64,000 nt of DNA from Alphaproteobacteria bacterium (GCA_964291415.2 OZ219918.1:416001-480000), one strand, 5' to 3'. Counted from the stretch's first letter, positions 46,119 to 62,985 are shown. The notes: generated by a model from the sequence alone, not told the origin. Numbers and translations are program-made.

Positions 46119-46985
46119 TCAGAGGATCTCCATCGGTGCCTGGGGTACCTCCTTCCAGAAATCGGGGTCGTGACCGGGGAATATTCGGGCGCCCCTGGCT
46201 CGCATTCGGCGCAGAAGCAGCAGCGAGTCCAGCATCTGCGAACGATCGTGGACCAGCTTCGGCAAATGAAGTTCCTCCAGGGTCTGACGGAAGTAGCAAG
46301 CGTCTGCCGCGAGCACGATGTCACCCGCTTCCAGACGAACCATGAGCGACTGGTGACCGGGAGTGTGACCGAAGGTAGGGATCGTCACCACAGTGCCATC
46401 GCCGAAGACATCATGCTCCCCGTGGACCTGGTGAACCAGGTGACCGTGGTCGTAGTCCTGCAGGTTGTAGGCATTGGCTTCCATAAGTTCGGGCGTATGG
46501 CCTGCCTCCCATTCCCTTTGCTGGATAATGACCTTGGCGTTGGGGATGAGTTCGTTGCCGCCGGAATGATCGAAGTGCAGGTGGCTGTTCACAACGTACG
46601 CAATCTGTTTGGGATCGATCTCGAGCTGATTGAGGCGCGAAGCGATGTCCTCACCGGGCCGGAAGTGAATGTCGAAGAACTTCGCCAGAGCACCGATACG
46701 GCCATGTGGGTCGTGTCCACTTTCGGGATGCAGGCCAGTGTCGAACAGAACATATCCTTTGGGGTGCTGGATCAGGTAGGTCGGGATGGGAAAGCGGATC
46801 CGACCCGACTCGCGTGCAAGCATCATGGAGACGTCAGCGCTGAGCCAGCCGCAGGTCATCGCATAGAGCTTGACAGCGGACGAATGACTCGACGAGCGCG
46901 CAACTGCGGTCGAGCGGGCCCCCTTCAGCGTCTCCCACCAGGCCTGGTTGCGCTCCAGGGCGAGCGCGCTCTCACGTGGGTCCAT
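46119..46985 (-). CDS. N-acyl-homoserine-lactonase family metallo-beta-lactamase-fold hydrolase
   Basis: SHLHFDHSG (HxHxDH); FDTG; DVFGDG; GHTPGHQS; ADACY; PGHDP. Confidence 0.85.
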   Translation of the reverse strand: MDPRESALALERNQAWWETLKGARSTAVARSSSHSSAVKLYAMTCGWLSADVSMMLARESGRIRFPIPTYLIQHPKGYVLFDTGLHPESGHDPHGRIGALAKFFDIHFRPGEDIASRLNQLEIDPKQIAYVVNSHLHFDHSGGNELIPNAKVIIQQREWEAGHTPELMEANAYNLQDYDHGHLVHQVHGEHDVFGDGTVVTIPTFGHTPGHQSLMVRLEAGDIVLAADACYFRQTLEELHLPKLVHDRSQMLDSLLLLRRMRARGARIFPGHDPDFWKEVPQAPMEIL

Positions 46986-49002
46986 GGCGCGTTCCGCTTG
47001 TTGTCATAGTGTCTATCCCGTCCGCGGCGCGGGGAATTCCGCCGGTCGCTGCCGAGTCCTCGGTGAGCGCAACAACCTTCTTGGTCGTCGAGGTCGAGAG
47101 TTCCATCCTGTAAGCGAGAAGCCAAATGAGAAGAACGCCCAGCCCCCACCATAAAAGCTGCCAGGCCCAGATGGAGGGCATCCGGAAATCCCAGCCCCCG
47201 TAGCCTGTGTCCGGCGCGCCAAACAGATAGTTGCCAATAACGATGCATGGCCCGACCGCGAAGAACAACCAAATCATCGTTGCGACCCAGGCGAAGGTGA
47301 CGAAGCGCCGCCTTCGCGCGGAGAGGCCGGCGTACTCCGCCAGGAAGCGGTGAATGCGGTAGCGACCCTCTGCACCGTCATCATCGCGTGTCAGGACCGA
47401 ACCAAGAATGCAGACAAGAAGATTGGCGACGAGACCCCAGGCAGCGGCATGGATGGTCCAGGGCCATTGACCCCAGGGCAGTGTGCCGCGAGTGAGCGCC
47501 TGTCCCAGCGGATCGGTCAGAACTACGACAATGGAGCCCACCACAATGCCGGCCGCAACGCCTTGCCGGGTGAACCAGCGGACCCACGCGACGCCCAGCA
47601 GCGCGGGCCAGAGCTGCACAGCGAGCGCCAGAGCCAGCCCGCCGAGCACGACCATGCCGTCGCGCTCGAGAGTTGCCATGAGAAGCGCGGCGACCGTGGC
47701 CAGCAGAGTCGCCACCCGGGCGAAGCGTTTCTGGAGCCGATCGTCGGCATGGGGATTGAAAAAGCGCATGTAGAGATCACGGGTGACGAGTGCGCCGGCA
47801 CTCGCCATGTAGGCGCCGCCTGCGGCCTTGATTGCGGCGATCATGCATACGGTCACGATGCCGAGAAGCCAGGGAGCAGACGCGCCGACAAGGTCGATCA
47901 GGTTCGCGACCAGCCTACCCTCCTCGCCGTTGTCGAGCGGTGGAAGAACGCGTTTCAGTTCCAGGCCTGCGGCGTTGACCTCCGGACTCGCACCTAGCAA
48001 AAGCCCGCCGAGACCCTGCAGTGTGACGAAAACGAAGAGAAGCACTCCCGCCGCACATGCCGACGCCCAGACCTGCTGCGGTGCGAAGGCGCCAGGATCC
48101 CGGCTGGCGAAGGCCCACATGGAGAACGCCGGTGATGCCTGGATGCCCATCAGGGCGACCATGAAGCTCATCACCATGAGACTGGTCCAGGGACCTCCCT
48201 GGGGCACCTCCTTGTTGAGCCCGTCGCTCCATTGCACCACGCCAGGTGTGGCGAACAACCCGTTGAAGTCGCCACCGCCATAGCCCAGTGTCGTTCCCCA
48301 TGGGCCTGTGGGTGTGCTTGCGATCACAGCCAAAGCCCTGTTGAGCGGGTCGAATCCGCCCACGAGATCAAGCGTCACAAGCCCCAGGATGCTGACGCCG
48401 ACAGCGATCAGCAGAGTTTGCAGTGTCGTGACGTACGCCACGGCTCGAAGTCCGCCGAGCGTCACGTAGATGACCAGGACGACGGCAAGGGTCCACATTG
48501 CCAAGTCGCGCGAGAGCAGGCCACCGGTTACGAGACTTATGAGGCCCCCTGCGAAGCCGAACAGCATACCGAGAAACGGGACGGCAAACAGAAGGGCGAC
48601 GATGACTGTGAACACACGGATGATATCGGAGCCGTAGTAGGCCGCGAACATCTCGCCTGGTGTGACGAAACCAAATCGCTTGCCGAGTATCCACTGCCGC
48701 TTGAGGAAGATCACCCCCGTCAGCGGCACGACGACAGCAGCGAATGCGATGTAGCCTGCCTGAAGGCCATCGCGCAGAATTAACGCGGGTCCGCCGATGA
48801 AGAGCCACCCGGCGAACGAGGTCGCCGTGGCCGCCATGACGAAAACCCAGGTGTTGAGACTGCGCCCGGCGACGAAGTAGGCGCTGGCAGTCTTGGCCTC
48901 GCGCGCACCCCTGACTCCCCAGAAAACGCAGTAGCTCCAATAAAGCACGGCGAAGAGGCCAAGCCAAAGCAGTCTCGACCCGTAGAGGCCGCCGTCGGTC
49001 AC
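46972..49002 (-). CDS. Sodium:solute symporter (SSS) family protein
   Basis: YFVAGR; AATATSFAGW; TLGGLRAVAY; many transmembrane segments; overlaps the lacI stop. Confidence 0.88.
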   Translation of the reverse strand: MTDGGLYGSRLLWLGLFAVLYWSYCVFWGVRGAREAKTASAYFVAGRSLNTWVFVMAATATSFAGWLFIGGPALILRDGLQAGYIAFAAVVVPLTGVIFLKRQWILGKRFGFVTPGEMFAAYYGSDIIRVFTVIVALLFAVPFLGMLFGFAGGLISLVTGGLLSRDLAMWTLAVVLVIYVTLGGLRAVAYVTTLQTLLIAVGVSILGLVTLDLVGGFDPLNRALAVIASTPTGPWGTTLGYGGGDFNGLFATPGVVQWSDGLNKEVPQGGPWTSLMVMSFMVALMGIQASPAFSMWAFASRDPGAFAPQQVWASACAAGVLLFVFVTLQGLGGLLLGASPEVNAAGLELKRVLPPLDNGEEGRLVANLIDLVGASAPWLLGIVTVCMIAAIKAAGGAYMASAGALVTRDLYMRFFNPHADDRLQKRFARVATLLATVAALLMATLERDGMVVLGGLALALAVQLWPALLGVAWVRWFTRQGVAAGIVVGSIVVVLTDPLGQALTRGTLPWGQWPWTIHAAAWGLVANLLVCILGSVLTRDDDGAEGRYRIHRFLAEYAGLSARRRRFVTFAWVATMIWLFFAVGPCIVIGNYLFGAPDTGYGGWDFRMPSIWAWQLLWWGLGVLLIWLLAYRMELSTSTTKKVVALTEDSAATGGIPRAADGIDTMTTSGTRHGPT

Positions 49003-50051
49003 CGGACCATCGCCCCCGCACGCCGGTCGCGATGCGTGTTGCGCGGGATCATTTCGCCTGCAATAGAGCGGTGAACAGGTGCCATGTCGGGATTGTCGTC
49101 GATTTCGCGGATCAACCTTACGGTCTCGGCCGCCATCCGCCGCATCGGATGACGATAGGTGGTCAGCGCATGGGAAGGCCAGCCAGCCATGGCAACGTCA
49201 TCGAATCCGACGACGGAGATGTCACGGGGTACGTCGCGCTTCAGTCCGTGACGCAGTGCATCAACTGTGCCAAAGGCGACGATGTCGTTGGCGCAGAATA
49301 TTGCGTCCAGATCGGGGACGGCGCGGATCAGGCGACAGGCCGCTGCATATCCGTCCTCGTAGGAGAACACCTCGGGAAGGTTGTCCCTGACGATCGTGAG
49401 GCCCGCCTCCGCGCAGCGCTCGACGAAGCCGCTGCCGCGGTCGATCGAGGTTGTCGCGTCGGGCGTACCGGCAATGTAGGCCATGTTGCGGTGGCCGGTT
49501 TCGATGAGGAACTCGGCGATCTCGCGACCGCCCCGCCTGTTGTCGCAGGTCACCGCAAAGGTCTCGGTTTCGGGAATATAGCGGTTGAAGAAGATCAGGT
49601 TGGTTCCGGTATCGATTGTCGCCATGGTGCGCTGGAACGAGACTGTTGCGGTCATGAGGATGATGTACTCGGGCTGATACAGCATGCCCTGTGGCAGCAC
49701 CTCGTCGGTCGTCTTTCCCTCGGGGACGTGAAACAGCATGACTCGGAGGCCGTGTTTTTGAAGTTCGCCGGTCAGGATCGCCATGACCTCTGGAAAGAAC
49801 GGGTTGAAGACGTCCGAGATGAAGATGCTGACGATGCGGGTCTTCTGGGTGATCAGGCTTCGAGCGAAGGGGTTGGGCTGGTATCCCATCGCCTTGGCGC
49901 GTGCGAGGATACGGTCGCGAGTATCCGGGGCGATCTGAGAGTCGGGCGAGAACGCACGCGAGACTGTCGAAATCGACACACCGAGTTCCTCGGCGACGTG
50001 CCGCGCCGCTACCGTCCTGCCGGCTGACTTTGGTTTTCCGGTATTGTCCAT
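48999..50051 (-). CDS. LacI-family transcriptional regulator
   Basis: VAEELGVSISTVSRA helix-turn-helix; YQPNPFARSL hinge; AIFCANDIVA; DISVVGFDD. Confidence 0.95.
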   Translation of the reverse strand: MDNTGKPKSAGRTVAARHVAEELGVSISTVSRAFSPDSQIAPDTRDRILARAKAMGYQPNPFARSLITQKTRIVSIFISDVFNPFFPEVMAILTGELQKHGLRVMLFHVPEGKTTDEVLPQGMLYQPEYIILMTATVSFQRTMATIDTGTNLIFFNRYIPETETFAVTCDNRRGGREIAEFLIETGHRNMAYIAGTPDATTSIDRGSGFVERCAEAGLTIVRDNLPEVFSYEDGYAAACRLIRAVPDLDAIFCANDIVAFGTVDALRHGLKRDVPRDISVVGFDDVAMAGWPSHALTTYRHPMRRMAAETVRLIREIDDNPDMAPVHRSIAGEMIPRNTHRDRRAGAMVR

Positions 50052-50172: not shown

Positions 50173-50218
50173 TGCAAACCTTTGCAAGACGCAAGATACC
50201 ATGTTGCAAAGGTTTGCA
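50173..50218. promoter_or_regulatory. Pair of LacI-type operators in the divergent promoter region
   Basis: TGCAAACCTTTGCA (50173-50186) and TGCAAAGGTTTGCA (50205-50218); a -10-like TACCAT (50197-50202) lies between them. Confidence 0.75.
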
Positions 50219-50369: not shown

Positions 50370-51542
50370 GTGACACAACTAACGAGAACCGCGGCCGCAC
50401 TGGCCGTCAGTCTGAGTGTCGGGACGGGTGCCGCATTGGCGGAAGGTCTCGACGAATTGCCGGAAGAGATAGTCGCCCGGACCTACAGCTCGGAAATGAT
50501 CGATCCGGCCCAGCCGGTCGAGGCAAGTATCTACCGTGACTGGAAATCACCAAGCGAACCGCCCTGGACGATCGGTTACGCCAGTTCCTATGCCGGTAAC
50601 ACCTGGCGGGCGGCCGTCATGGATCGGCTGATCCAGAGCATTCTGCCCAAGTGGCAGGAACTGGGATTGGTGGACGACGTCTTTGTCACCCAGTCCAACC
50701 TGAACGATTCGGTGCAGATCCAGCAGATGCGCCAGCTTGTTGATCAGGGTGTGGACGCGATCATCGTCTGCTGCTCGAACCCGACAGCACTCAATGCAAC
50801 GGTCAAGTATGCATATGAGCGAGGTGTGCCGACCTTCTCGTTCACCGGTTACCTGACATCACCCTATGCCGTGAACTCGTCAGTGAACTATCAGCTGGCC
50901 GGTTTCGAGATCGGCAAGTGGATGGCCGAAGAGGTTGGCGGTGAAGGAAGCATCCTTGTGGTCGAGGGCATTCCTGGCACTTCCGGTTCTGACTCGCAGC
51001 ACCGCGGCGTCCTGCTCGGTCTCGAGTCATACCCCGACATCGACATTGTCGGCGAGATCGCGGGCATGTGGACAGACCAGGTCGCCCAGGGTGAGGTTCA
51101 GAAGTGGTTGTCCACCAACCCTGGCCAGCTTGACGGCATCGTCGTGCAGTCGGCTGCGGAGATGGGCGTGTTGCGGGCCCTGCAACAATCGGGCCGGGAG
51201 ATGGTTCCTGTGGCGATTGGCGGCGAGCTCGGCGCCCTTTGCTACTGGCGCAAGAACCCTGGCTACATCAGCACGACCTTCCAGGTCTGGCCTCCCGGTG
51301 ATGATTTCGAGCTGATCTGGAACATCATGATGCGGACGCTTCAGGGTCAGGGCCCGAGGGTGCAGTCAATTCTCGTGGATCCATTCGAGTTCACTTATTC
51401 GGATCTCGAGGGTGTCCTCGACGAGAACTGCGACGAGAACTCCCAGCTGTGGCTCGAGGTCGGGCCTGCGGCCTGGGGTGCCGAAGACTATCTCGACCAG
51501 TTCTTCCTGCGTCCCGCAGATCCGACCCAGTACCAGCCCTGA
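50370..51542 (+). CDS. Sugar-type (periplasmic binding protein class I) ABC substrate-binding protein
   Basis: Signal peptide ending AALA; YAGNTWR; QIQQMRQLVDQGVDAIIV; VVEGIPGTSGS. Confidence 0.85.
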   Translation: MTQLTRTAAALAVSLSVGTGAALAEGLDELPEEIVARTYSSEMIDPAQPVEASIYRDWKSPSEPPWTIGYASSYAGNTWRAAVMDRLIQSILPKWQELGLVDDVFVTQSNLNDSVQIQQMRQLVDQGVDAIIVCCSNPTALNATVKYAYERGVPTFSFTGYLTSPYAVNSSVNYQLAGFEIGKWMAEEVGGEGSILVVEGIPGTSGSDSQHRGVLLGLESYPDIDIVGEIAGMWTDQVAQGEVQKWLSTNPGQLDGIVVQSAAEMGVLRALQQSGREMVPVAIGGELGALCYWRKNPGYISTTFQVWPPGDDFELIWNIMMRTLQGQGPRVQSILVDPFEFTYSDLEGVLDENCDENSQLWLEVGPAAWGAEDYLDQFFLRPADPTQYQP

Positions 51543-51584: not shown

Positions 51585-53402
51585 ATGCCTTCCGAAGAAA
51601 CCGTGAGTTCCCAACAGGAGCTCCCCGGCGCCGCCGACCAGATGTCGGCGGCGCCGGCTTTCGTCGATGCGGATATTGTTGTGACCAATGTGCACAAGAC
51701 GTTCGGCGTCACGCGCGCGCTCGACGGAGTTTCCTTCAGTGCACGATGCGGCGAGATTCACGCTATCGTGGGTGGCAACGGTTGCGGCAAATCAACTCTG
51801 GCCAAGGTCATTTCGGGCGTCCTTCCCATCGACAGCGGTCAGGTGTCGGTTCTGGGACATGCACCCGGCAGCCCGCGCGAAGCGCGTCTGGCAGGCATCG
51901 CGACGGTCTTCCAGGAAGTTCTGGTGGCTGACCATCTGACGGTGCTCGACAATCTGTATGTCGGCGCTGACGGTCTCTGGTCCAAATCCCTGTCGTTCCG
52001 CGAAAAGTATGCAAGGGGCGAAGCCTTGATGCGTGACCTCAGCGGGGTTGATATCGACCCTGACGAGATCGTCGGTGGCTTGTCGCTGTCGATCAAGCAG
52101 TGGATCACCATCGGCCGCGCATTGATACAGGAACCCCGCGTCCTCATCCTCGATGAGTCCTCTGCAGCCCTCGATTTCGATTCGACCGAGAAGCTCTTCG
52201 AGAAGATGCGCGAACTGCGCGACAAGGGCGCCGCCGTGCTCATCGTGACCCATCGCATTGCCGAGCTGATTCGCGTATCCGACCGCGCCACGGTGCTGCG
52301 TGACGGGCGCGACGTTGGTGTACTGGCCAAGGAGGAAGTGACCGAACAGAACCTCTTGGGCCTGATGACCGGGAGGAGCCAGTCCACCGAGAGCGACGCC
52401 ACCAACTCGGTGGCGCCGGCCCGCGACGACACCGTGATGAGTGTACGTGGGCTCAAGGTTTGGGAAGGCAGCAAGGGTATCGACTTCGATCTCCACCGTG
52501 GCGAGGTGGTGGGTGTCGCCGGACTCGACGGGCAGGGCCAGGATGAGTTCGTGCGCGTGCTCGCCGGCGTCCAGCCCGCACTCGAAGGCGTACCCCTGGT
52601 GCGCAGTGGGCCCGGCAATCTGGCCGAGCTTCACGGACTTGAGGACGCTGATCGATTCCGTGTCGCCTACGTCTCGGGCGATCGCAAGCAGGAGGGAATC
52701 TTCCCCAACCTCTCGGTTTTCGAGAACCTTGCAATCGCGCTCTATCCCAGGGAACTGAAGACGCGCTTCGGCAATGTTATCGACTGGCCTTCACTGGCCA
52801 GCGTGTTCGAAAACTGGCGCCAGAAGCTCTCCATCAAGATCGGTTTGGCGTCCGACAAGGTCACATCGCTGTCGGGCGGCAATCAGCAGAAGGTGCTGAT
52901 CGGTCGCGCGATGGCCCTCAACCCGAGAATCCTTGTGCTCAACGACCCGGCGCGCGGCATCGACGTTGAGGCCAAGCGCGAACTTTATGATCATCTGCGC
53001 GACTTTGCCGCCCGAGGCGAATCCGTGGTCTTCATGTCGAGCGAACTTGAGGAGTTCATTGGACTTTGCACGCGCGTGATCGTGTTCCGTCATGGCGAGA
53101 TCTTCGACGCGTTCGCTGGCGACGACATCGAGCCGGCGCGCCTCCTCGAGGCCATGTTCGGCCAGACCTCCGGTCGTGGGGCCCGCCTTGCCGCGGGCGC
53201 GGATTCGGGACCAGCCGTTGTGGACAGTGATCCTGTGCCAGAGTCCGAGCGGGAAGCGCCGCGCAGGCAACATCGACCTCGGCCAGATGCAATCCGGATC
53301 ATTGACTTCGATGCCGAACGCAGGGAGCACCGCAGTCAGGGTGCAGTGGACACTCGGCAACCTGCGGAAAAGCGCATGAAGATAGTCTATTCGGACGGCT
53401 GA
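51585..53402 (+). CDS. CUT2-type tandem ABC ATPase with a C-terminal extension
   Basis: GGNGCGKST; VFQE; LDES; second half LSGGNQQK; about 80 extra aa after the last conserved helix. Confidence 0.92.
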   Translation: MPSEETVSSQQELPGAADQMSAAPAFVDADIVVTNVHKTFGVTRALDGVSFSARCGEIHAIVGGNGCGKSTLAKVISGVLPIDSGQVSVLGHAPGSPREARLAGIATVFQEVLVADHLTVLDNLYVGADGLWSKSLSFREKYARGEALMRDLSGVDIDPDEIVGGLSLSIKQWITIGRALIQEPRVLILDESSAALDFDSTEKLFEKMRELRDKGAAVLIVTHRIAELIRVSDRATVLRDGRDVGVLAKEEVTEQNLLGLMTGRSQSTESDATNSVAPARDDTVMSVRGLKVWEGSKGIDFDLHRGEVVGVAGLDGQGQDEFVRVLAGVQPALEGVPLVRSGPGNLAELHGLEDADRFRVAYVSGDRKQEGIFPNLSVFENLAIALYPRELKTRFGNVIDWPSLASVFENWRQKLSIKIGLASDKVTSLSGGNQQKVLIGRAMALNPRILVLNDPARGIDVEAKRELYDHLRDFAARGESVVFMSSELEEFIGLCTRVIVFRHGEIFDAFAGDDIEPARLLEAMFGQTSGRGARLAAGADSGPAVVDSDPVPESEREAPRRQHRPRPDAIRIIDFDAERREHRSQGAVDTRQPAEKRMKIVYSDG

Positions 53403-53413: not shown

Positions 53414-53770
53414 ATGGAAATGAAGCGCATGAAGATCGTGGAGTTTGATGACGAGGGAAGGCCGGTCGAACGGCAGGGACCGACTGCATCTCCGCGCGTG
53501 ACGTCGGAATGCAGCGGGCCGGTCAGGATCGTGGCCTTTGGTGATGAACCCGAGGACAACCTCGGCGTGGAGACTGCACCGGACGCGCCGAAGATAAAGA
53601 TCAGGGAGTTTGATGGCGCTGGCGCGCCGAGACCGGCGGGTGAGCCAATGCGCTTTCGTATCCCGTCGGAAAAGAGCATCAGGGTTGTCGAGTTCGATGA
53701 CGACGGCAAGCCCAGGCGGCGCGAGAATGGTTCGGGTGCGCGTGGCATCAAGATTGTCGAGTTTGACTGA
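53414..53770 (+). CDS. Small hypothetical repeat protein ([IMV][KR][IV]x[EA]F[DG] five times)
   Basis: GGGAG RBS; repeats MKIVEFD, VRIVAFG, IKIREFD, IRVVEFD, IKIVEFD; lies inside the operon. Confidence 0.75.
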   Translation: MEMKRMKIVEFDDEGRPVERQGPTASPRVTSECSGPVRIVAFGDEPEDNLGVETAPDAPKIKIREFDGAGAPRPAGEPMRFRIPSEKSIRVVEFDDDGKPRRRENGSGARGIKIVEFD

Positions 53771-53821: not shown

Positions 53822-56044
53822 ATGAGCGAAACCGACGTCAGACGTCCGTCCTCGTCGGCCCATTCGTTTCTCATGGTGCCGATCATTCTGCTGTTCGTGC
53901 TGATCGTGGTCGCCGTACTCAGAAGTCCCAGTCTGGTAACGGGGCCGGGTCTGGGCAGCGCTGTCATTGTCGCTGCGCCGCTGATCCTGGCGACCTACGC
54001 GCTGACTGTTATCGTGATGGCGGGCCGTGGCGGCGTCGATCTTTCGATAGGACCGCTCATCGGTTTCATCAACGTCACCATGATTCAGCTTCATGCGGTC
54101 GGGGTCGTGACGTCGGTGGTCGATGTTTTCCTGTACGCGATTGCCGTGGGCATCGCCTATCAGCTGATCATGGGACTGATCATCTGTTACGTGCGGATTC
54201 AGCCCATTATCGTGGCGCTGGCAGGCTTTCTGACACTTGCGGGGCTCAATCTCGTCATACTGCCGCGGCCAGGCGGAGTCGCACCGCAGTGGATGAGTTC
54301 CTGGGCTCTGGGCGAGTCGATCTGGACACCTGTGCTGGCGATTCTCGCCGTCGCGACTGCCGCTTGGTTCCTGTTCACGCGCACCGCCTTTTTCAACCAT
54401 CTGCGCATCATGGGCGCGGACGAGAGAACTGCCTACACAGCGGGCGTCAACATCGTCGTCGTGCGGCTGGGCGCACATGTCGTCGCGGGAGTCTATGCCG
54501 GACTTGCGGCAATCTGTTTCACGTCGTTGATCAGTTCCGGAGACCCGACTCAGGGCAGCACCTATACGCTGATGGCCGTGACAGCGCTCGTTCTGGGCGG
54601 CACGAGCCTGGCCGGCGGACGCGGCAGTATCATCGGATCGCTGTTGGGGGCGCTGAACATCTATCTCATCACCTATGTGCTCGCGACGTTCAACTTCGGC
54701 ATGGTGCAGAGCTTTGTCACCCAGCTCGCCTATGGCGTGATTCTGGTTGTTGCCTTGCTGCTCACGATTCTTCTTCCACAGATCCAGCGCGCCATGCGTT
54801 ACGTGTCGCCCTATGTCGTGTTCGCTTTCCTCGGTCTCACCGCCGCCGGAGCGATGCTCTATGCCCAGGACGTCGTGCTCGAGACCGTTGGAACGTCGCT
54901 CGCCGGGACCTCGCTGAGCGGCCAGTCGCTCAGCGGGCAGTCTCTCAGTGGAACCTCGTTGAGTGGCACGTCCCTGACGACTCAGGCCGAAGCGCCTGCC
55001 GATCCTACCGGTACACCCATCGTCGTCGCGGCGGTGGTGATCGCTGCAGCGGTTTACCTTATCTGGCTGCTTTACAGGCATCTGAATTTCGCGACCGTCG
55101 CTCTGATTGGCGTCGTTTCACTAATCGTATTGGGCTATGCGGTCCATGATGGAGGCATACCCGAGCAGCGCTCCGTGGAGATGGTCGGCAACTGGGCGAT
55201 GGAAAAGGCACAGACCCCGTTCGTACTAGGTGCCGAGAAGCCACCTGAACCGGCAGTGCAGGTGCTGTCATTCGAGGAGTCACCGCTTTTCGGTGCGGCA
55301 CTGGCGGGTGCCGGGACGCTGGTTCTCGGCACCATTCTGATCTTCACGACGGTGCCACAGATACAGCAGCGGAGGGTCGGTGAAAACTCGCTGCTTTTCA
55401 TGTCTGTCGTCGGCTTGATCATAGCCGCGGGATTGATCTACTGGCTGCAGGATGGCGCTGGAGCAAGCAAGCTGTTCGCGGGTGCGCTCGGTGCGCTGGT
55501 TGTAGGCGCCATGCTTTTCGTGGTGACGCTCCCCCGGTTCCAGGACCGCATCCGGAACATCACCATGGTGATGGTGACGCTGATTGCGCTCGTGGCGCTG
55601 ATCAGCACGTTCCTTGCAAATGTTCCGCCCCTGTCGACGAGTCCTGTGCCGCTGTTGACCGCAGCGGCTCCTGAACCTCTGGAAGCGGCCGCACTGTCAA
55701 ACGGCTTTTTCCTTGCAGTCGTACTGCTTCTTGTCGCGGGCGTGACCCTCTATCTTCTGGTGATTCCGGGCGTGCGTCGCCACGTCATGTCGAACGTGCC
55801 GCTTGGCGCAGGGATCCGTTCCTACTCCTACACCACGTTGTTTGTTTCGGTCAGCGCCACGGCCTTCGCTTGTGCGGTGCTGATGGTTGCAGGTGCGCCG
55901 TTGTGGAAAGTCGTGGTCGCCGCACTTGCCGTGCTGATAGCAACCAAGTTCGGTTACCACTTCTTGCGTGATTACCGGCGCAGGCGCCCAACCGTGCCTC
56001 GTCTCAAGACACCGCGAGCCCTTCGGGTGTCGAGGAGGGTCTGA
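53822..56044 (+). CDS. Sugar-type ABC permease with a C-terminal multi-transmembrane extension of about 400 aa
   Basis: GGVDLSIG, IQPIIVAL, GADERTAYTAGV and LGGTSLAGGRG core motifs in the first ~320 aa; 740 aa in total. Confidence 0.88.
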   Translation: MSETDVRRPSSSAHSFLMVPIILLFVLIVVAVLRSPSLVTGPGLGSAVIVAAPLILATYALTVIVMAGRGGVDLSIGPLIGFINVTMIQLHAVGVVTSVVDVFLYAIAVGIAYQLIMGLIICYVRIQPIIVALAGFLTLAGLNLVILPRPGGVAPQWMSSWALGESIWTPVLAILAVATAAWFLFTRTAFFNHLRIMGADERTAYTAGVNIVVVRLGAHVVAGVYAGLAAICFTSLISSGDPTQGSTYTLMAVTALVLGGTSLAGGRGSIIGSLLGALNIYLITYVLATFNFGMVQSFVTQLAYGVILVVALLLTILLPQIQRAMRYVSPYVVFAFLGLTAAGAMLYAQDVVLETVGTSLAGTSLSGQSLSGQSLSGTSLSGTSLTTQAEAPADPTGTPIVVAAVVIAAAVYLIWLLYRHLNFATVALIGVVSLIVLGYAVHDGGIPEQRSVEMVGNWAMEKAQTPFVLGAEKPPEPAVQVLSFEESPLFGAALAGAGTLVLGTILIFTTVPQIQQRRVGENSLLFMSVVGLIIAAGLIYWLQDGAGASKLFAGALGALVVGAMLFVVTLPRFQDRIRNITMVMVTLIALVALISTFLANVPPLSTSPVPLLTAAAPEPLEAAALSNGFFLAVVLLLVAGVTLYLLVIPGVRRHVMSNVPLGAGIRSYSYTTLFVSVSATAFACAVLMVAGAPLWKVVVAALAVLIATKFGYHFLRDYRRRRPTVPRLKTPRALRVSRRV
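54890..54979 (+). repeat. Coding 15-bp (5-aa) tandem repeat, six copies of G[TQ]SL[AST]
   Basis: GTSLA GTSLS GQSLS GQSLS GTSLS GTSLT; synonymous codons differ between units. Confidence 0.95.
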
Positions 56045-57468
56045 TGAAGCCCACACAGCACCGCTTCTACAAGTGGCTCGGGTTCCTCTTCGCGCTCCTG
56101 GTTGCCGGCGGCAGCGTGATTCTCGGAATCGTCGAGGAGATTGAAGCCCAGTACATTCTGTTCTCGGCGATCGCCACCTTCGCCATCGTGCTGTGGGCTT
56201 GGCATCACTTCTCGGTCCGCTGGGTCTACGATCTCGACGGCATGGCGCTCGATAGCATGAGCCGGGAGAATCGGGGATCGTCGGAAGAGCCGTCCGAAGT
56301 GCCGCATCACGAGCAAAGCACGGGCCGCTACGTGCGATTCCTCGCGCTCGAATACAAGCACATCATCATCGGTTTCCTGATTTTGCTTGGGTTGTTCCTG
56401 ATTGTCGCCTTCTCGGTGGAGGATTTCTGGACCTGGAACAACATCATCGCTTCTGTCGTCGTGGCGGTGTTCATCGGCATCGCCTTCATGCTCAATCGAA
56501 CGGTCTCCGAGAACTCGTCAGCCTTCATCGGCGTCACGGTCCTGCTTGGTCTTTTCATTGTCGGCTCGCTTGTCGTCGACGGCTTCTTCTCGGCGATCAA
56601 CATCAAGTCAATGCTGGTCTTTGCATCCTTTCTCGGGCTTGCATGCGTCGGTCAGACACTTGTTGTCCTGCTGGGTGGGCTGGATCTCTCGATTCCCTTC
56701 GTCATCGGTTCAGCCAACGTAGCGTTGCTCTATCTCCTGGGGCTCGGCGTGCCGTCCTGGTTCGCGGTGATCGCGATCCTGATCCTCGGGGCCATCATCG
56801 GGGTCATCAACGGCCTCCTCAGTTTTCGACTGCAGGGCCAGGCACTGATCGTCACGCTCGGTGTGGGCTTTGCGGTCGCAGGTGGCACGCAGATTCTGAC
56901 AAGCATCGGTACACGCTATTCGGGCAACGTCTTCGGCGTGGTGCCCGAGTGGCTCACCAATATCGCAGCGATGAATGGACGCACCTTCGGGCTCGACTTT
57001 CCGCCGGTGATCGTGATCTGGATCGCTGCGGCAATCTTGCTCACCATCGCGATGCGCAACACGGTCTTTGGGCGCAGGCTCTATGCGCTGGGTGGCAGCC
57101 GCAGAGCGGCCAGGCGTCTATCGATCTCGGAGCGCAATTACTGGATTGCGGTCTACGGAGCATCGGGCTGCATCGCGGCGATGACTGGAGCCCTGCTGCT
57201 GGGCTGGTCGGGTGGCGGCTTCATCGGTGTCGGGGATCCTTACCTCTTCATGACACTTGCTGCTGTGGTGATTGGTGGCACCTCGCTCCTGGGCGGCTGG
57301 GGCGGTTATGGCTTCACCGTAATCGGTGTGCTCGTACTGCAGGTGCTGTCGTCCTTTCTGGTCGGCATCGGCCTGTCCTTCGAGGGCCAGCAGTTCGTTT
57401 TCGGCCTGCTGATCCTGCCCATGGTCGCCATGTATGCCCGCTCGCCGCACATTCGAACACAGATCTGA
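56044..57468 (+). CDS. Sugar-type ABC permease with an N-terminal multi-transmembrane extension of about 150 aa
   Basis: GQTLVVLLGGLDLS; IVTLG; FGRRLYALG; IGGTSLLGG; 474 aa. Confidence 0.88.
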   Translation: MKPTQHRFYKWLGFLFALLVAGGSVILGIVEEIEAQYILFSAIATFAIVLWAWHHFSVRWVYDLDGMALDSMSRENRGSSEEPSEVPHHEQSTGRYVRFLALEYKHIIIGFLILLGLFLIVAFSVEDFWTWNNIIASVVVAVFIGIAFMLNRTVSENSSAFIGVTVLLGLFIVGSLVVDGFFSAINIKSMLVFASFLGLACVGQTLVVLLGGLDLSIPFVIGSANVALLYLLGLGVPSWFAVIAILILGAIIGVINGLLSFRLQGQALIVTLGVGFAVAGGTQILTSIGTRYSGNVFGVVPEWLTNIAAMNGRTFGLDFPPVIVIWIAAAILLTIAMRNTVFGRRLYALGGSRRAARRLSISERNYWIAVYGASGCIAAMTGALLLGWSGGGFIGVGDPYLFMTLAAVVIGGTSLLGGWGGYGFTVIGVLVLQVLSSFLVGIGLSFEGQQFVFGLLILPMVAMYARSPHIRTQI

Positions 57469-57513: not shown

Positions 57514-58236
57514 ATGAGTGAGATGCTGCAACCAAATGACATCGTCGGCATGTCATTCTGGCTCATGACCCTCGCCATGGCGGGTGCGGCAGCATTCTTC
57601 CTGCTGGAGCGTCGTCGCGTGGAGCGCCGCTGGCAGGCGGCGCTGACCACGCTCGGCGTCGCCATGCTGGTCTCGGCACTGAGCTATGTGAATCTCGCGG
57701 GCGTCTGGGCAGGCAAGGGCGAAGTGTCGACGATTTACCGTTTCGCCGAGTGGCAGCTGACGGTGCCGCTCCTTACAGTGACCTTCTACCTGGTGCTGTG
57801 TGCGGTGACGAAGGTTCCAGCAGCATTGTTCTGGCGCCTTCTGGTGGCCTCGGGTGTACTCACGGCTGCGGGTTACCTCGGTTCGGCGGGCTTCGTCAGC
57901 CCAACACTGGGCTTCCTCGTTGCGCTCGCCGGCGGTCTCTACATCCTGGGCGAAATCTACCTTGGCGAGGCGGGAAGGCTCAATGCCAACAGCGGCAATC
58001 AGAAGGCCCAGACCGCGTTCAGCGCGATGCGCCTTATCGCAACCATCGGCTGGGCGATCTATCCGCTGGGCTACTTCATGGAGTACCTGGGCGGCGGCGT
58101 CGACAATGAAGCGATCAATCTGATCTACAACCTCGCTGATTTTCTCAACAAGCTCGCATTTGGCCTCATCGTCTGGCAGGCCGCGGCGAACGACAGGGAA
58201 GCGGACGGAAATCGCTCGCCGCTGTCAGGCGCATGA
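57514..58236 (+). CDS. Proteorhodopsin-family microbial rhodopsin, flotillin-associated type, ETT motif
   Basis: Seven transmembrane segments; SFWL...FFLLER; YRFAEWQLTVPLL; GWAIYPLGY; YNLADFLNK with Schiff-base Lys213. Confidence 0.92.
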   Translation: MSEMLQPNDIVGMSFWLMTLAMAGAAAFFLLERRRVERRWQAALTTLGVAMLVSALSYVNLAGVWAGKGEVSTIYRFAEWQLTVPLLTVTFYLVLCAVTKVPAALFWRLLVASGVLTAAGYLGSAGFVSPTLGFLVALAGGLYILGEIYLGEAGRLNANSGNQKAQTAFSAMRLIATIGWAIYPLGYFMEYLGGGVDNEAINLIYNLADFLNKLAFGLIVWQAAANDREADGNRSPLSGA

Positions 58237-58297: not shown

Positions 58298-60361
58298 ATG
58301 ACCGGAGCTGACATCATCACCACGATCCTGCTTGCAGGCATCCTGATCGCGGTCATCGTCTACCTGCTGTACTGGCTGTACCGGCGCTCGTCCAAGGAAG
58401 TCGCCTTCGTGCGCACAGGCCTGGGTGGCGAAAGGGTCGTCATAACCGGTGGTGCGCTTGTGCTGCCCATCGTCCACAACGTGACGCTGGTGGGAATGAA
58501 CACGTTGCGTCTGGAGGTCAGGCGGGACGGCGATCAGGCACTCATCACCAAGAACCGGATGCGCATTGACGTGGTGGCCGAGTTCACCGTGCGCGTGCGG
58601 TCTGACCCGGAGGCCGTGTCGTTGGCAGCCCAGACGCTGGGACGGCGATCCATGAGTGCCGATGATGTCAAGGAGGTTGTCCAGGGTCGTTTCGTTGATG
58701 CCCTTGCAAGCGTTGCCGCCCGGATGACCATGGACGACATCCAGGAGAACCGTGACGTCTACATGAAGGATGTCCGGGCAATCATCGAGGAGAGCGTGGC
58801 GCGCAACGGACTGGAAATCGAGGCCGTGTCGCTCACCGGCCTCGACCAGACCAGCATCGAACGGTTCAATCCGTCAAACGCCTTTGACGCCGAAGGTCTG
58901 ACCCGACTGACCGAACAGATCGAAACACGCAAGAAGGCCAGAAATGACATAGAACAGGACACGATGGTTGCGATTCGGTCGAAGAACCTCGAGGCCGAAG
59001 TCGAGGCGCTCGAAATTGACCGCAAGAGCGAATACGCGCGGCTCGAACAGGAACGCGAGGTCGCAAAGCAGCGGGCTTTGGAGAAAGCACAGATCACGAT
59101 GGAACGGGCTGCCCGGGACCGGGAGGCTCAAGAGGCGGAGATTCGCGCCGAAGAGGAAGTCGAGATTGCCCGCATTCAGCGTGAAAAGGCCCTGGAGGCC
59201 GAGCGGTCCTTGCGTGAGACGACGCTGACGGAGGAGATCGAGGCCCGGCGCAAGCACCGCAACGACGTGGAGCGCGACACCCAGATTGCGATCCGCGCGA
59301 AGGACCGTCAGGCGGAAGTGGAGATCCTGGAGATCGAGAAGGAGATCGAATTCGCAAGGCTCGGTCAGCAAGAAGCCATTGCCGGACAGCGCGCAACGCA
59401 GATGGCCGAGATTGCCAGGCGTCAGTCGAGTGGCGAGCAGGAAGCGGAGACCGCTCGCATTGCCGCGCTGGAGGCCATTGAGCGCGCTCGCATTCTTCAG
59501 GAAAGAGCGGTGGAGTCCGAGCGCATCGCGCGCAATCAGGAAGTCGATCGCCTGGAGGTGCTGCGCCGCAAGGTTCTGCAACTCGAGGAGCAGGAGCGCG
59601 CCATTGCCATCACACGCAAGGAGAAGGACAAGGCCGAGGCGCAGGCCGAAACCGAGGAGGCCCGCGCCCGGGCCGTCGAAGCCGAGGAGAAAGTCGCCTC
59701 GGCGCGGGAGCGGGAGGCTGCTGAGCGACGCAAGCTCGTCGAACTCATCGAGGCTGCTCGTGCGGTCGAGAGCGAAGCGCTCCAGCTCACCACCATTGCC
59801 GCGGCGCAGACCAACGCAGCTGAACAGAAGGCTGCGGCCGACCGTTTCGCCACACTGTCGGAGAAGCTGCGTTACGAAGTCGATGCCGAGGGCAGGCGTG
59901 CCCTCAACGAGGCGGAGAACATCCGCACCGATGACAACCGTGAACATGCTCTGCGCATGAAGCTTCTGGAGCACATCGAGGGCATCGTGCGTGAGAGCGT
60001 CAAGCCGCTGGAGAACATCGACTCCATCAAGATCCTTCAGGTCGACGGCGTACCGGGCGTCAACAGTCCGTCGGACGTTGGCCGCGGCGGAGCCGGTTCC
60101 GGTGATCCCGCCTCTGGTGGGGGCAGCATGACCGACCGCATCGTGAATTCGGCCATGAAGTATCGCACTCAGGCGGCATTCGTAGACGGCTTGATGAAGG
60201 ACCTGGGACTGCCGATGGAGCACCTCGGCAGCGCGGGTGGCCTGTCCTTCCGCAACTTTGCTGAAGCACCTCCCGAGGATGTCGCGGACGGTAAGCCGGG
60301 TGGAGACCATACCGACGACGATAACGTCGAGGACAGCGGGCCATCAGACGACGACAAATAG
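58298..60361 (+). CDS. Flotillin (SPFH/band 7, YqiK-like) protein
   Basis: N-terminal transmembrane segment; AFVRTGLGG; AAQTLG; NGLEIEAVSLTGLDQT; FNPSNAFDAEGLT; long EA-rich coiled coil; KPLENIDSIKI. Confidence 0.93.
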   Translation: MTGADIITTILLAGILIAVIVYLLYWLYRRSSKEVAFVRTGLGGERVVITGGALVLPIVHNVTLVGMNTLRLEVRRDGDQALITKNRMRIDVVAEFTVRVRSDPEAVSLAAQTLGRRSMSADDVKEVVQGRFVDALASVAARMTMDDIQENRDVYMKDVRAIIEESVARNGLEIEAVSLTGLDQTSIERFNPSNAFDAEGLTRLTEQIETRKKARNDIEQDTMVAIRSKNLEAEVEALEIDRKSEYARLEQEREVAKQRALEKAQITMERAARDREAQEAEIRAEEEVEIARIQREKALEAERSLRETTLTEEIEARRKHRNDVERDTQIAIRAKDRQAEVEILEIEKEIEFARLGQQEAIAGQRATQMAEIARRQSSGEQEAETARIAALEAIERARILQERAVESERIARNQEVDRLEVLRRKVLQLEEQERAIAITRKEKDKAEAQAETEEARARAVEAEEKVASAREREAAERRKLVELIEAARAVESEALQLTTIAAAQTNAAEQKAAADRFATLSEKLRYEVDAEGRRALNEAENIRTDDNREHALRMKLLEHIEGIVRESVKPLENIDSIKILQVDGVPGVNSPSDVGRGGAGSGDPASGGGSMTDRIVNSAMKYRTQAAFVDGLMKDLGLPMEHLGSAGGLSFRNFAEAPPEDVADGKPGGDHTDDDNVEDSGPSDDDK

Positions 60362-60406
60362 ACGACCAGCGCAGGCGGAACGTCACTGACTTAAGGGGAC
60401 TGGGAC

Positions 60407-60796
60407 ATGAGTATCGATGTCAACAGCTGGGCAGCCAAGTACAAGCAGCTCACCAATGCTGACGAAACCATTCAATGCATGGGAAGGTATTACACCTGTA
60501 CGTTCATGTTCGACATGGGCACACGGAAGGTCATCGTCGAAATGCACGATGGCAAGGTGAAGGGCATCAACACGAACCCGGCGCCGATGGATCCCTACGA
60601 TTTTGCCTTGCGCGCCAGTCCTGAGACCTGGCGCGAGTTTGCCCAGCCGATGCCCAAGCCAATGTATCACGGCATCTTTTCGGCGAGCTTCCAGCGTGAC
60701 CTCAAACTCGAGGGCAATTTGCTGGTGTTGATGCAGAACCTGAGGAATTTCACCGTGCAGTTCGAGTTGCTGCGCCAGTCCGGCGTCCCGGTCTAG
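60407..60796 (+). CDS. SCP2 (sterol carrier protein-2)-like lipid-binding protein
   Basis: 129 aa; DFALRASPETWREF and LKLEGNLLVLMQ match the SCP2-like pattern. Confidence 0.6.
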   Translation: MSIDVNSWAAKYKQLTNADETIQCMGRYYTCTFMFDMGTRKVIVEMHDGKVKGINTNPAPMDPYDFALRASPETWREFAQPMPKPMYHGIFSASFQRDLKLEGNLLVLMQNLRNFTVQFELLRQSGVPV

Positions 60797-60848
60797 GCCG
60801 GTCGCCACTACGCCACGAAACACGAACGCCAAGTCGAGGGCAACAACC

Positions 60849-61700
60849 ATGGTCAAGCATTCTCCGGTCACCGGCCGCTACGTCACGATCGAAGTTGACG
60901 GCAACGAGTACAAAGTCTTCTACCTGCACAATGGCACCGGACAGCCGCTGATTTGTCAGCACACGGCGGGTGCTCACAATCATCAATGGCGTGGCCTTCT
61001 GGAGGACGAGGAGATCACCCGGGACTACAACGTGATTGCCTACGACCTGCCGCGTCACGGCAAGTCGGATCCGCCGCACAACAAGGAGTGGTGGAAAGAT
61101 GAGTACCGCCTGACGGCTGACCACTACGTCAACTTCATCGTCACGTTATGCGACGCACTTGAACTCAAGGAACCGATCTTCATGGGGTCGTCCTTCGGCG
61201 GCAACGTGGCGCTGCAGCTTGCGCTGAGGCGGCCGGACCGTTTCAAGGCGGTGATTCCCGTTGAGGCAGCCGACTATGCGCCTGGCTTCTTTCTCGATTG
61301 GTGGCGCCATCCGCACGCCAACGCCGCCCAGGTCTGCGCCTCGGGAGTGTGGGACTTGATGGCCCCGCAATCCCCGGACATGGACCGATGGCTCACTTGG
61401 CACTACTACACGCAGGGTTCGGAGGCCTTCAAAGGCGATCTCTACTTCTATTCGGTCGACCACGACCTGCGTGACGAGCTTGTCAACATCGACGGGAGGC
61501 GGTGCCCTGTCATCATGATGACGGGGACATACGATTACCTGACGCCCCCCGAGGCAACCGAGAATACCGCGCGCCAGATCAAGGGCGGCGTCTACATTGA
61601 AATGGAGGACATCGGGCATTTTCCCATGAGCGAGAATCATGAACTGTTCCGTGTCTATCTCAAGGAGGCGCTGCGCATCATCAGGGAGCGCAAAGGCTGA
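60849..61700 (+). CDS. Alpha/beta-fold hydrolase
   Basis: HTAG; AYDLPRHGKS; nucleophile elbow GSSFGG; GTYDYL; GHFPMSEN. Confidence 0.9.
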   Translation: MVKHSPVTGRYVTIEVDGNEYKVFYLHNGTGQPLICQHTAGAHNHQWRGLLEDEEITRDYNVIAYDLPRHGKSDPPHNKEWWKDEYRLTADHYVNFIVTLCDALELKEPIFMGSSFGGNVALQLALRRPDRFKAVIPVEAADYAPGFFLDWWRHPHANAAQVCASGVWDLMAPQSPDMDRWLTWHYYTQGSEAFKGDLYFYSVDHDLRDELVNIDGRRCPVIMMTGTYDYLTPPEATENTARQIKGGVYIEMEDIGHFPMSENHELFRVYLKEALRIIRERKG

Positions 61701-62094
61701 CACATCGCCTGTACGGGCAAGGGCGCGATCGTGGATCCCGCCGTCGGTTTCCAGTCACGCGTTGACTGCGGGACTTGACGTCACGGTATCGGGCTCATTC
61801 TTGAGTTCTGGTGCGGGCGCGCTCCACGTTTCGGGCGATGAGGCAGAGTGTCGGGATGACGAAACAGACTGGAGTTGCCGCGGGGACTCAACATGATCGG
61901 CTACTTCGAGGACGGTTTTCCCGGCGCCCATGCCCAGCGGTGCCTGCTCGCCAGGTCCGGTTGACGAGAAAAACCCCGCCATTTCCTGCAGCGACGCCGT
62001 GCATTGCTGACGGTCCGGCATGGCGCCGTGGTGTCCGGCCATCGGGCGTTGCGAGCCTGGCGTCTGGCTCGATCCGACAAGACGAGGCAGTTTC

Positions 62095-62985
62095 ATGAAC
62101 GCACACGAGGGACATGTGCCGCTCTGCCAGGGAGCCGATCCGTCGCCACGCCCTTCGTGGGTCGGGATGCCGGAGGGGGCCTGCGACGCGCACATGCACA
62201 TCTTCGGGGCCCGCGCACGCTATCCGATGGTGCCGGACCGCAACTATACTCCGCCGGAAGCAACGGTCGAAGCCTACGAGGCGCTGGCCCGTGTGCTTCA
62301 CATTCGGCGAACGGTGATCGTCCAGCCCAGCGTCTACGGTGTCGACAATGCGTGCACGCTCGATGCTCTGCTGGCCCTGTCGCTTGAAGCCCGTGCCATC
62401 GTGGCAGTCGACAACAGCGTGAGCGACGCCGAGCTTCAGCGCCTGCATGCCCGAGGCGCCCGGGGCATTCGCTTCAATCTGCTGATGAGAGGCGGTATCG
62501 GGATCACGGACGCCGAATGCCTTGCCGAGCGCATCAAGGGCATGGGCTGGCATATCGAGGTGATGATGGACGTTTCCTCCGACCCGGAGCTTACCGAGCG
62601 CCTCGGCCGTCTCGGTGTGCCAGTCGTGTTCGATCACATCGGTCATATCCGACCGGGCACTCGCACTGATGATCCGGGTTTCCAGGCCATGGTCCGACTG
62701 GTGGGAGATGGGGGCGCCTGGGTCAAGCTCTCGGGTGCCTACCGCGTCACGGTCGAGGATCGGACCCCCTATGCGGATGTCGGCGCGCATGTCCGTGTCC
62801 TGCTCGAAGTCAATCCGCAACGGTGCCTCTGGGCCACCGACTGGCCGCACCCAGGCATCAACGTCCCGATGCCCAACGACGGCGCCCTGCTTGACATGCT
62901 CGGCTACTGGGCACGCGACGCAGCGCTGCGCCGTCGCATACTGGTCGACAACCCCGCTGATCTCTACGGCTTCGGAGCGCTCTAG
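62095..62985 (+). CDS. Amidohydrolase_2 family protein, LigI (2-pyrone-4,6-dicarboxylate lactonase)/sugar-lactonase-like
   Basis: CDAHMHIFG; VQPSVYGVDN; RGIRFN; FDHIG; WVKLSGAYR; WATDWPHP. Confidence 0.85.
   Translation: MNAHEGHVPLCQGADPSPRPSWVGMPEGACDAHMHIFGARARYPMVPDRNYTPPEATVEAYEALARVLHIRRTVIVQPSVYGVDNACTLDALLALSLEARAIVAVDNSVSDAELQRLHARGARGIRFNLLMRGGIGITDAECLAERIKGMGWHIEVMMDVSSDPELTERLGRLGVPVVFDHIGHIRPGTRTDDPGFQAMVRLVGDGGAWVKLSGAYRVTVEDRTPYADVGAHVRVLLEVNPQRCLWATDWPHPGINVPMPNDGALLDMLGYWARDAALRRRILVDNPADLYGFGAL

Follow-up and report, generated by a model that had tools for sequence, protein, structure and literature searches.

An open-pocket flotillin-associated rhodopsin in a LacI-bearing gene cluster of an alphaproteobacterium without a proteorhodopsin, and its possible role in lactone uptake and hydrolysis

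The window analyzed here is a stretch of 64,000 nucleotides from an Alphaproteobacteria bacterium (GCA_964291415.2, OZ219918.1:416001-480000), whose genome has 4.44 Mb and 65% GC and is by its record 100% complete and 8.99% contaminated. Its positions 46,119 to 62,985 hold a divergent locus of 13 genes, in which a flotillin-associated rhodopsin (FAR) is embedded between an ATP-binding cassette (ABC) importer and a set of putative hydrolases. All 13 genes lie where an earlier note, made from the sequence alone, had placed them, and the families it assigned were borne out by Pfam and NCBIfam. The left arm, on the minus strand, consists of a LacI-family repressor (48999..50051; PF00356, PF13377), a sodium:solute symporter (46972..49002; PF00474) that is the counterpart of the symporter in the FAR-cluster rows of Table S2 of PMC10308929, and a lactonase of the metallo-beta-lactamase fold (46119..46985; PF00753). 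The right arm, on the plus strand, begins with a CUT2-type substrate-binding protein (50370..51542; PF13407), an ABC ATPase with two PF00005 matches and a disordered tail of about 80 aa (51585..53402) and a 118-aa linker protein (53414..53770). These are followed by permease 1 (53822..56044; 740 aa, PF02653 on residues 49-315), which by hydropathy carries a long C-terminal membrane extension, and permease 2 (56044..57468; PF02653 on residues 187-458), which has an N-terminal extension of about four hydrophobic segments. The FAR (57514..58236) stands directly before the flotillin (SPFH and Flot domains, PF01145 and PF15975; 58298..60361) on the same strand, with a gap of 61 nt, and the arm closes with an SCP2-fold protein (60407..60796) and an uncharacterized alpha/beta hydrolase with HTAG and GSSFGG motifs (60849..61700; PF00561). 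The successive gaps of 42, 11, 51, -1, 45, 61, 45 and 52 nt agree with the spacing of about 60 nt or less described before. A LigI-like amidohydrolase (62020..62985, plus strand; PF04909) lies downstream; the distance of about 400 nt reported for it is 319 nt when counted to the first ATG and 394 nt when counted to the likely start, an ATG at 62095 that is preceded by GAGG in the printed sequence.

Except for LacI and the amidohydrolase, the whole gene set is present in Table S2 of PMC10308929 (judged by annotation and by eye), and from the permeases to the hydrolase its order is that of HIMB59. The locus is therefore almost certainly the FAR cluster known from Pelagibacterales, HIMB59 and Pseudothioglobus (Haro-Moreno et al., 2023; PMC10308929). 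The coupling of the rhodopsin to importer, SCP2-like protein, hydrolase, symporter and lactonase, which had been put forward as new, was thus already contained in that table. The published work, as far as its text was available, gives no substrate and proposes FAR as a helper of proteorhodopsin, and deletion of a FAR cluster has been described in a population (PMC12379486). Searching via the rhodopsin, we found 25 related loci, which are kin and not independent of each other; completeness is established for six genomes of the same genus (94-100%). The run from binding protein through ATPase, linker, both permeases, FAR, flotillin and SCP2 to hydrolase is complete in 20 of them, so that the gene order is conserved; contig ends or breaks interrupt the remaining five. 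One relative has a frameshifted FAR (L024:10001-10699) and another a broken stretch from flotillin to hydrolase (L013). Since any rhodopsin match occurs in only 8 of 22 other genomes of the genus, the FAR cluster is regarded as accessory.

The two operators proposed earlier are real. The genome of 4.44 Mb contains exactly two copies of the palindrome TGCAAAnnTTTGCA, at window positions 50173 and 50205, both of them between lacI and the binding-protein gene. Operator 1 (TGCAAACCTTTGCA) spans 50173..50186, and operator 2 (TGCAAAGGTTTGCA, the reverse complement of operator 1) spans 50205..50218, 32 nt further on. Only four sites in the whole genome are within one mismatch of the palindrome, corresponding to about 0.0003 per 320 nt. 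A divergent lacI is present in 15 of the 20 complete related loci, and all 15 keep an operator site within one mismatch, whereas such a site is found in one of the five loci without lacI. Because the operators are unique in the genome and conserved together with LacI, control of the locus by the repressor is very probable on these sequence grounds.

The window FAR aligns one to one with PsFAR (9r21, 9r23), so that both share one numbering, and its predicted structure (pLDDT 89) has 9r21 as best fold match (TM 0.91). It carries E79, T83 and T90, S54, S57, V84, G120, A137, G141, D209 and K213, with R76 and W80 present. The assignment as a non-pumping rhodopsin is supported: ETT replaces the DTE motif of proteorhodopsins, leaving no donor at position 90, and Ser57 stands in place of the helix-B histidine. 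The absence of a carboxylate proton donor and Ser54 are FAR-type features, while the lysine with R76, W80 and D209 is a pump-type Schiff-base set that has been kept. In a tree of 48 sequences, which contained no SAR11 FAR, 34 FARs and 14 proteorhodopsins split on one branch (support 99/92), and the window FAR belongs to a clade of 18 sequences (support 100/97) that we term open-pocket; a test of the blocked FARs as one clade gave p-AU 0.23. Flotillin lies beside all 26 metagenome rhodopsin loci with G146 and beside none of 46 proteorhodopsin loci (at least 300 nt downstream available). A broad FAR-specific surface on helices D-F was considered and mostly rejected, as W107, R108 and R173 are also found in proteorhodopsins; only L142, G146, Y149, L174 and L211 separate the two families.

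The retinal pocket distinguishes this clade from the FAR studied so far. PsFAR does not hold retinal, since H84 and E120 fill its pocket; the H84V/E120G mutant regains binding, with near-bistable photochemistry, but not pumping, and an aromatic residue at position 84 is said to occur in all FARs (10.1101/2025.04.29.651185). Further marks of the family are a pentameric state and a failure to bind retinal upon expression. The aromatic-blocked pocket stated for marine FARs (position 84, with E120 or W137) is absent from the window FAR, which scores higher against the double mutant 9r23 than against wild-type PsFAR because V84 and G120 are its natural residues. We counted residues in 77 open-pocket members among the best 120 of 3252 homologs. 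Position 84 is V in 55, A in 16, L in three, I and T in one each and a gap in one, and thus aromatic in none; position 120 is A in 60 and G in 17. Position 141 is G in 76 and A in one, whereas all 42 Pseudothioglobus-type FARs, and likewise the proteorhodopsins examined, have W141. Position 213, the site of the Schiff-base lysine, is K in 55, R in 17, V in four and P in one fragment. In a quick tree that covers 76 members and omits the fragments P0076 and P0077, it changes six times, with at least three changes forced by strong branches, and all four Val213 proteins carry Lys87. The pocket thus keeps a positive charge, whereas a residue at 213 that could form the Schiff base is not kept. Replacement of Lys213 by Arg, or by Val together with Lys87, is easier to reconcile with a carboxylate ligand held non-covalently than with a Schiff base, and in a retinal-free proteoopsin decanoate is held by a salt bridge to the equivalent of Lys213 (PMC11322631). 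We infer that the pocket ligand of the clade is such a carboxylate, although members with Lys213 may be able to bind retinal. The 49 freshwater rows of Table S4 include one Arg213 member, so the family as published had already sampled the open-pocket clade, which goes undiscussed in the available text of PMC10308929. One clade member (P0012) combines a DTE motif with G141 and K213.

The FARs described before come with a proton-pumping proteorhodopsin elsewhere in a streamlined genome, a pump that was not found in the window genome. This genome contains a single PF01036 rhodopsin match in 4.44 Mb. The FAR is the only rhodopsin in 23 of 25 related genomes, and the second rhodopsin of the other two is a lysine-less FAR inside its own permease-FAR-flotillin cluster; for the cultured strains treated below, rhodopsin content was assessed in two plasmid records. 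The absence of retinal synthesis genes, noted before for the window, extends to the genome. The gene blh was detected in none of 26 genomes (the window genome and 25 relatives), while the same search was positive in 15 of 301 genomes of the class, and in the window genome crtI gave no match over the cut-off and lycopene cyclase no full-length match, both yielding only short N-terminal ones. A gene of the RPE65/carotenoid-oxygenase family is split over two frames (G000:C2:979039-980369). FARs without proteorhodopsin and without blh argue, for these 26 genomes, against the idea of a pump helper, and light independence of the unit is probable.

The importer may offer a link between transport and the FAR-flotillin pair. 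The window binding protein is 63-69% identical to those of cultured FAR clusters and 53% to FAR-less orthologs in bean rhizobia, and it has no close solved relative (best E 7e-23). The FAR-less operon reads SCP2-hydrolase-binding protein-ATPase-permease-permease-succinic semialdehyde dehydrogenase (SSADH), with binding protein, ATPase and permease cores 51-61% identical to those of the window. Its permeases have 324 aa (the ortholog of permease 1) and 339 aa, and its ATPases 517-519 aa without tail. All seven FAR clusters aligned have a homologous N-terminal extension of permease 2, which the FAR-less ortholog lacks. To judge from these sequences, the permease extensions and the ATPase tail track FAR and flotillin. 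The order permease-permease-FAR-flotillin is also kept across paralogs whose FARs are merely 32-37% identical, and the flotillin gene is the only copy found in the genome. A loop of the permease 1 extension contains short tandem SL[AS]G[TQ] repeats (window about 54900-55000). Aquaporin-1 and a urea transporter are housed inside domes of stomatin (PMC12407830), a precedent by analogy for an SPFH cage around transporters. A physical cage complex of flotillin, FAR and importer has, in our estimate, slightly less than an even chance of being correct. An identity of the importer with teu (PMC3557214, PMC4125696) was rejected: the 53% ortholog is SFGR64A_00066-69, teuBAC1C2 is the next ABC set, and the teu set at the matching place in Rhizobium tropici is 25-33% identical to the window genes. 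In P. gei a further CUT2 importer, a LacI 44% identical to that of the window and a second lactonase-family gene lie directly upstream of the FAR cluster (L034:5702-16397).

A short sequence motif (the tag) recurs in several proteins of FAR clusters. The linker protein consists of five copies of I[KR]I[VI]EFD separated by spacers that are unconserved in the alignment, and it had no match in Pfam or NCBIfam and no usable one in the ESM Atlas. It is encoded in every locus that covers the gap (21 of 21), where the pattern matches three to five times, and is the sole multi-copy carrier among the 18 motif-bearing frames of the genome. Two further copies lie in the ATPase tail (about 53292-53312 and 53376-53396; motif scores 19.8 and 15.0 bits). 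The tag also ends the ATPase in Hoeflea, P. gei, Martelella and HIMB59-type loci, whereas the FAR-less ortholog ATPases lack it; the biotin carboxylase tail carries it in five HIMB59-type loci, and by eye the tail of a SAR11 carboxyltransferase in Table S2 has a tag-like end. The attM frame of Martelella, Hoeflea and P. gei reaches 55-56 codons beyond its annotated start on the upstream side, where it begins with MKI[IV]EFD in all three, 29-56 nt after the hydrolase stop; the stand-alone BlcC of Agrobacterium fabrum C58, 63% identical to AttM, has no such extension. These three attM genes are probably annotated 55-56 codons too short (L130:17882, L033:14396, L034:19884).

The partner of the tag may be flotillin, FAR, a permease or the tag itself. 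Within flotillin, the segment IKILQVD (about 60026-60046) is the best 7-mer match to the motif profile; 78 of 2.97 million 7-mers score as high in a six-frame background, a post hoc figure, as the likeness had first been seen by eye. The basket of human flotillin is closed by a barrel to which each subunit contributes one strand (10.1101/2024.05.09.593390), and by analogy IKILQVD may be the flotillin cap strand. A complex fold of four flotillin cap pieces (515-640) with the linker scored 0.00 twice, but the controls did not fold either, so that this speaks neither for nor against docking. We consider docking of the tag on flotillin rather doubtful, and a single literature search for cargo or targeting peptides of bacterial SPFH proteins gave no report of such a tag.

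Information on the substrate comes mainly from cultured relatives. The rhodopsin matches six plasmid records, of which four were examined; CP070278.1 and NZ_CP066788.1 bear two organism names but have near-equal lengths and identical match scores and may be two filings of the same plasmid. Hoeflea IMCC20628, P. gei and Martelella AD-3 have in common an IclR gene beside SCP2, hydrolase, attM, the ABC set, an Arg213-type FAR and flotillin, then a small membrane protein, a symporter and an iron-containing alcohol dehydrogenase (Fe-ADH). In Martelella AD-3 this forms a single gene run, with binding protein, ATPase and two permeases between attM and FAR, and SSADH added after Fe-ADH. Its IclR, SSADH, Fe-ADH and AttM are 42, 58, 53 and 63% identical to BlcR, A, B and C of A. 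fabrum C58. The AttM cut-off of NCBIfam (390) is passed in Martelella (415) and P. gei (416), and the Martelella SSADH passes its own. As blcABC converts gamma-butyrolactone to 4-hydroxybutyrate and succinic semialdehyde (PMC5924552), the earlier suggestion of a lactone substrate has gained real support from these embedded homologs; the FAR-less operon of R. tropici likewise ends in SSADH. Of three publications found that pair rhodopsin with these strain names, none concerned these genes, judging by title or the start of the abstract. SAR11 and HIMB59 clusters contain extra LamB/PxpA-like and biotin carboxylase genes, which we take to encode lactam-opening enzymes.

In the window, the lactonase is a distant member of the AttM/BlcC type (NF045700, 186.5 bits; 35% identity to Martelella AttM), and in 15 of 25 relatives its gene comes immediately after that of the hydrolase. 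Its clade shares a conserved N-terminal extension (NQAWWxxL; also in L007, L008, L010, L014 and L024), possibly an amphipathic anchor or a second targeting peptide. As the lactonase is more distant and the regulator is a LacI, a substituted lactone is a possible ligand. Elsewhere in the genome lies a gene for an SSADH that shares 58% identity with that of Martelella. The SCP2-fold protein is a putative lipid carrier by fold: its Pfam score of 17.2 bits is below the cut-off (21.3) and a PDB sequence search returned nothing, but its model of moderate quality (pLDDT 63) best matches sterol carrier protein 2 (2cx7; Z 8.8, rmsd 2.8, 99 aligned residues), and most top fold matches are SCP2 proteins. 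Its gene and that of the hydrolase stay together even where FAR is missing, in loci of Rhodococcus and Rhizobium; on Rhodococcus plasmids the pair occurs alone with an aldehyde dehydrogenase. The hydrolase is the most conserved gene of the cluster (91-99% in full-length matches of related loci), with no close solved relative and only generic names in the ESM Atlas. The LigI-like amidohydrolase (best PDB match LigI 4d8l, E 1.5e-43; best NCBIfam model 4-sulfomuconolactone hydrolase, 217 bits against a cut-off of 500) had been counted as the third hydrolase of the unit, but it is adjacent in only four of 25 related loci, all of them near relatives, and is therefore probably peripheral. Vitamin B6 catabolism was dropped as a candidate, its NCBIfam matches being weak and far below cut-offs. 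Dimethylformamidase, whose homologs are marked "All" in Table S2 (PMC10308929), was rejected as a core component for this clade: there is none in the cluster and none in 11 of 21 related genomes, and the window genome has 11 dimethylformamidase-like matches elsewhere.

We posit that the FAR cluster encodes a substrate-inducible, light-independent and flotillin-scaffolded unit for the uptake and hydrolysis of butyrolactone-type compounds, a proposal for which we see the chances as evenly balanced. LacI would repress both arms from its two operators until the ligand binds. The binding protein and the extended CUT2 importer would then take up a small gamma-butyrolactone-type lactone, or an ester or amide yielding one, as the relatives suggest; for a butyrolactone-type substrate as such we would give an even estimate. 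The SCP2/hydrolase pair and the AttM-like lactonase may open the ring to 4-hydroxybutyrate-like acids, which could pass via succinic semialdehyde to succinate by the route published for Agrobacterium blcABC. Flotillin would form a membrane-attached cage around a patch with the FAR oligomer and the importer, the permease extensions being the likely contact, while the tag might tether the ATPase and soluble enzymes to the assembly with the five-copy linker as a cross-bridge. FAR itself would have a structural or ligand-sensing role, with a carboxylate such as a fatty acid bound non-covalently in its enlarged pocket instead of a photoactive Schiff base. In its boldest form, which we advance only tentatively, the cluster would be a membrane-attached catabolic compartment: a flotillin cage over a membrane patch with a light-blind rhodopsin oligomer and the ABC importer, loaded with enzymes by a seven-residue tag that mimics the cap strand and trapping a diffusible lactone until its ring is opened, with the rhodopsin repurposed as a carboxylate-binding subunit.

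Several observations weigh against this proposal. The binding protein belongs to a sugar-type family whose solved relatives bind a sugar or polyol. The window cluster contains no Fe-ADH, SSADH or IclR, its own lactonase fails the AttM cut-off, and the Martelella Fe-ADH passes no cut-off for 4-hydroxybutyrate dehydrogenase. No tag match was found in the Leu213-type FAR and flotillin clusters (Shinella and the second cluster of G004), so the tag is not required; in the latter (L028:9287-11452), a C-terminal extra domain of the ATPase, YbhB/PEBP-like by eye, replaces the tag tail. The window FAR keeps K213, D209, the carboxylate at 79, R76 and W80, which together with the two retinal-restoring residues means that it may well bind retinal. 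Marine FARs, furthermore, have been tied to the photic zone (PMC10308929).

The last points lead to the alternative that the open-pocket FAR is a true retinal protein, which would take up retinal or an apocarotenoid from the surroundings and, without pumping, switch the importer slowly in response to light. The two residues of the retinal-binding PsFAR double mutant, V84 and G120, are present (10.1101/2025.04.29.651185), K213 is kept in most of the clade, scavenging has been proposed for opsins of hosts without the pathway, and the genome holds the RPE65-family gene, though split. However, Lys213 was lost repeatedly, mostly to an Arg that is unable to form a Schiff base, position 141 is Gly almost throughout the clade instead of Trp, blh is missing from all 26 genomes, and clusters with Arg213 or Leu213 occur in soil and plant isolates; a retinal function is on balance unlikely. 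The published view, in which FAR joins a proton-pumping proteorhodopsin in a heterocomplex within flotillin rafts and adapts the pump to dim light, draws on marine single-cell genomes in which FAR was always accompanied by proteorhodopsin (PMC10308929). With no proteorhodopsin in the window genome or 25 relatives, where second rhodopsins are only FARs, it is most improbable here, but may still hold for SAR11, HIMB59 and Pseudothioglobus.

Other alternatives accept a catabolic locus and differ in its substrate or in the role of the rhodopsin. N-acyl homoserine lactones (AHLs) cross membranes without a high-affinity importer, which we count against a long-chain AHL or similar acyl lactone as substrate, taken up for quorum eavesdropping or quenching with its acyl chain held by FAR and SCP2. 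The SCP2 fold and a pocket able to take a C10-C12 carboxylate would suit acyl chains, and enzymes of the AttM family cleave AHLs as well as butyrolactone, but the inducers of blcABC are butyrolactone, 4-hydroxybutyrate and succinic semialdehyde and not AHLs (PMC5924552). Neither an acyl-CoA ligase nor an AHL acylase is among the Pfam matches of the window cluster, and we judge this substrate rather unlikely. FAR and flotillin might also be a general membrane-organizing pair that travels with a catabolic operon and has no functional link to the importer. Importer, SCP2 and hydrolase occur without the pair in bean rhizobia and SCP2 with hydrolase alone in Rhodococcus, FAR and flotillin of SAR11 lie on the strand opposite to the ABC genes, and the cluster is patchy within the genus. 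Against mere co-travelling, permease extensions and ATPase tail accompany FAR and flotillin and do not occur in the orthologs from FAR-less loci, and the order of the four membrane genes outlasts strong divergence of the FARs, which renders an unlinked pair quite improbable.

The remainder of the window (1-45771) is ordinary housekeeping sequence, with genes for DNA polymerase III alpha, ETF, argH, a lysA-like protein, class II ribonucleotide reductase, hemC/hemD/hemY, an aminotransferase, indolepyruvate oxidoreductase and a B12 mutase with a crotonyl-CoA-reductase-like gene and an acyl-CoA dehydrogenase. Promoter and terminator scans remained at chance level (3 vs 3.4 and 12 vs 11.2). In an RNA run labelled sponge metagenome, the small share was 0.09, and contigs with low cover in 28 of 30 bins leave library DNA possible; a few contig pieces of 219-313 nt differ by 0-3 letters, but these contigs show no transcript.

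FARs are widespread among SAR11 and other abundant aquatic bacteria. The evidence presented here shifts the question of what they do from phototrophy towards regulated catabolism in culturable hosts. While all FAR producers have been said to be uncultivated (10.1101/2025.04.29.651185), cultured strains of Martelella, Hoeflea and Pararhizobium carry the whole cluster on plasmids and provide a candidate substrate class. The open-pocket FAR is a natural variant that bears on the retinal question, in genomes to which the pump-helper idea does not apply. If the tag does direct enzymes to a flotillin cage, a bacterial SPFH assembly would have a loading signal, one that could also be used to position enzymes next to a transporter.

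In comparison with known systems, the window shares with the published FAR cluster the binding protein, ATPase, two extended permeases and AHL-lactonase-family gene, and with HIMB59 in particular the run permease-permease-FAR-flotillin-SCP2-hydrolase-symporter. It differs by a host without proteorhodopsin and with a 4.44 Mb genome of 65% GC, by the presence of LacI and its operators (in the available text of Table S2 the term LacI does not occur), by the lack of dimethylformamidase, PxpA and biotin carboxylase in the cluster and by its open pocket. The window FAR resembles PsFAR 9r21 in fold, numbering, S54, K213 and the missing proton donor, but naturally has V84 and G120, and G141 for W141. 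Homologs of BlcR, B and C of the blcRABC (attJKLM) system occur in the Hoeflea and P. gei clusters and all four in Martelella AD-3, whereas Agrobacterium blcABC has no importer, FAR, flotillin or tag, and in the window the regulator is LacI, the lactonase is more distant and the cluster contains neither BlcA nor BlcB. The bean-rhizobial operon (pRtrCIAT899a, Sinorhizobium fredii p64a) corresponds in its importer cores and its SCP2 and hydrolase homologs, but has permeases and ATPase of standard length and neither tag, FAR nor flotillin; it adjoins teuBAC1C2 and is not teu itself. Encapsulins and microcompartments load enzymes via short terminal peptides, and the tag, a short conserved terminal peptide on unrelated proteins beside a shell gene, may be likened to these in its way of working only. 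SPFH cages of human flotillin (10.1101/2024.05.09.593390) and stomatin (PMC12407830) offer a basket with a beta-barrel of one strand per subunit at its narrow end and a dome over oligomeric transporters, to which the proposed flotillin cage may be likened. Beyond the available text of PMC10308929 and 10.1101/2025.04.29.651185, our analysis adds pump-less hosts, the open pocket, the tag, cultured carriers with blc homologs and permease extensions that track FAR and flotillin.

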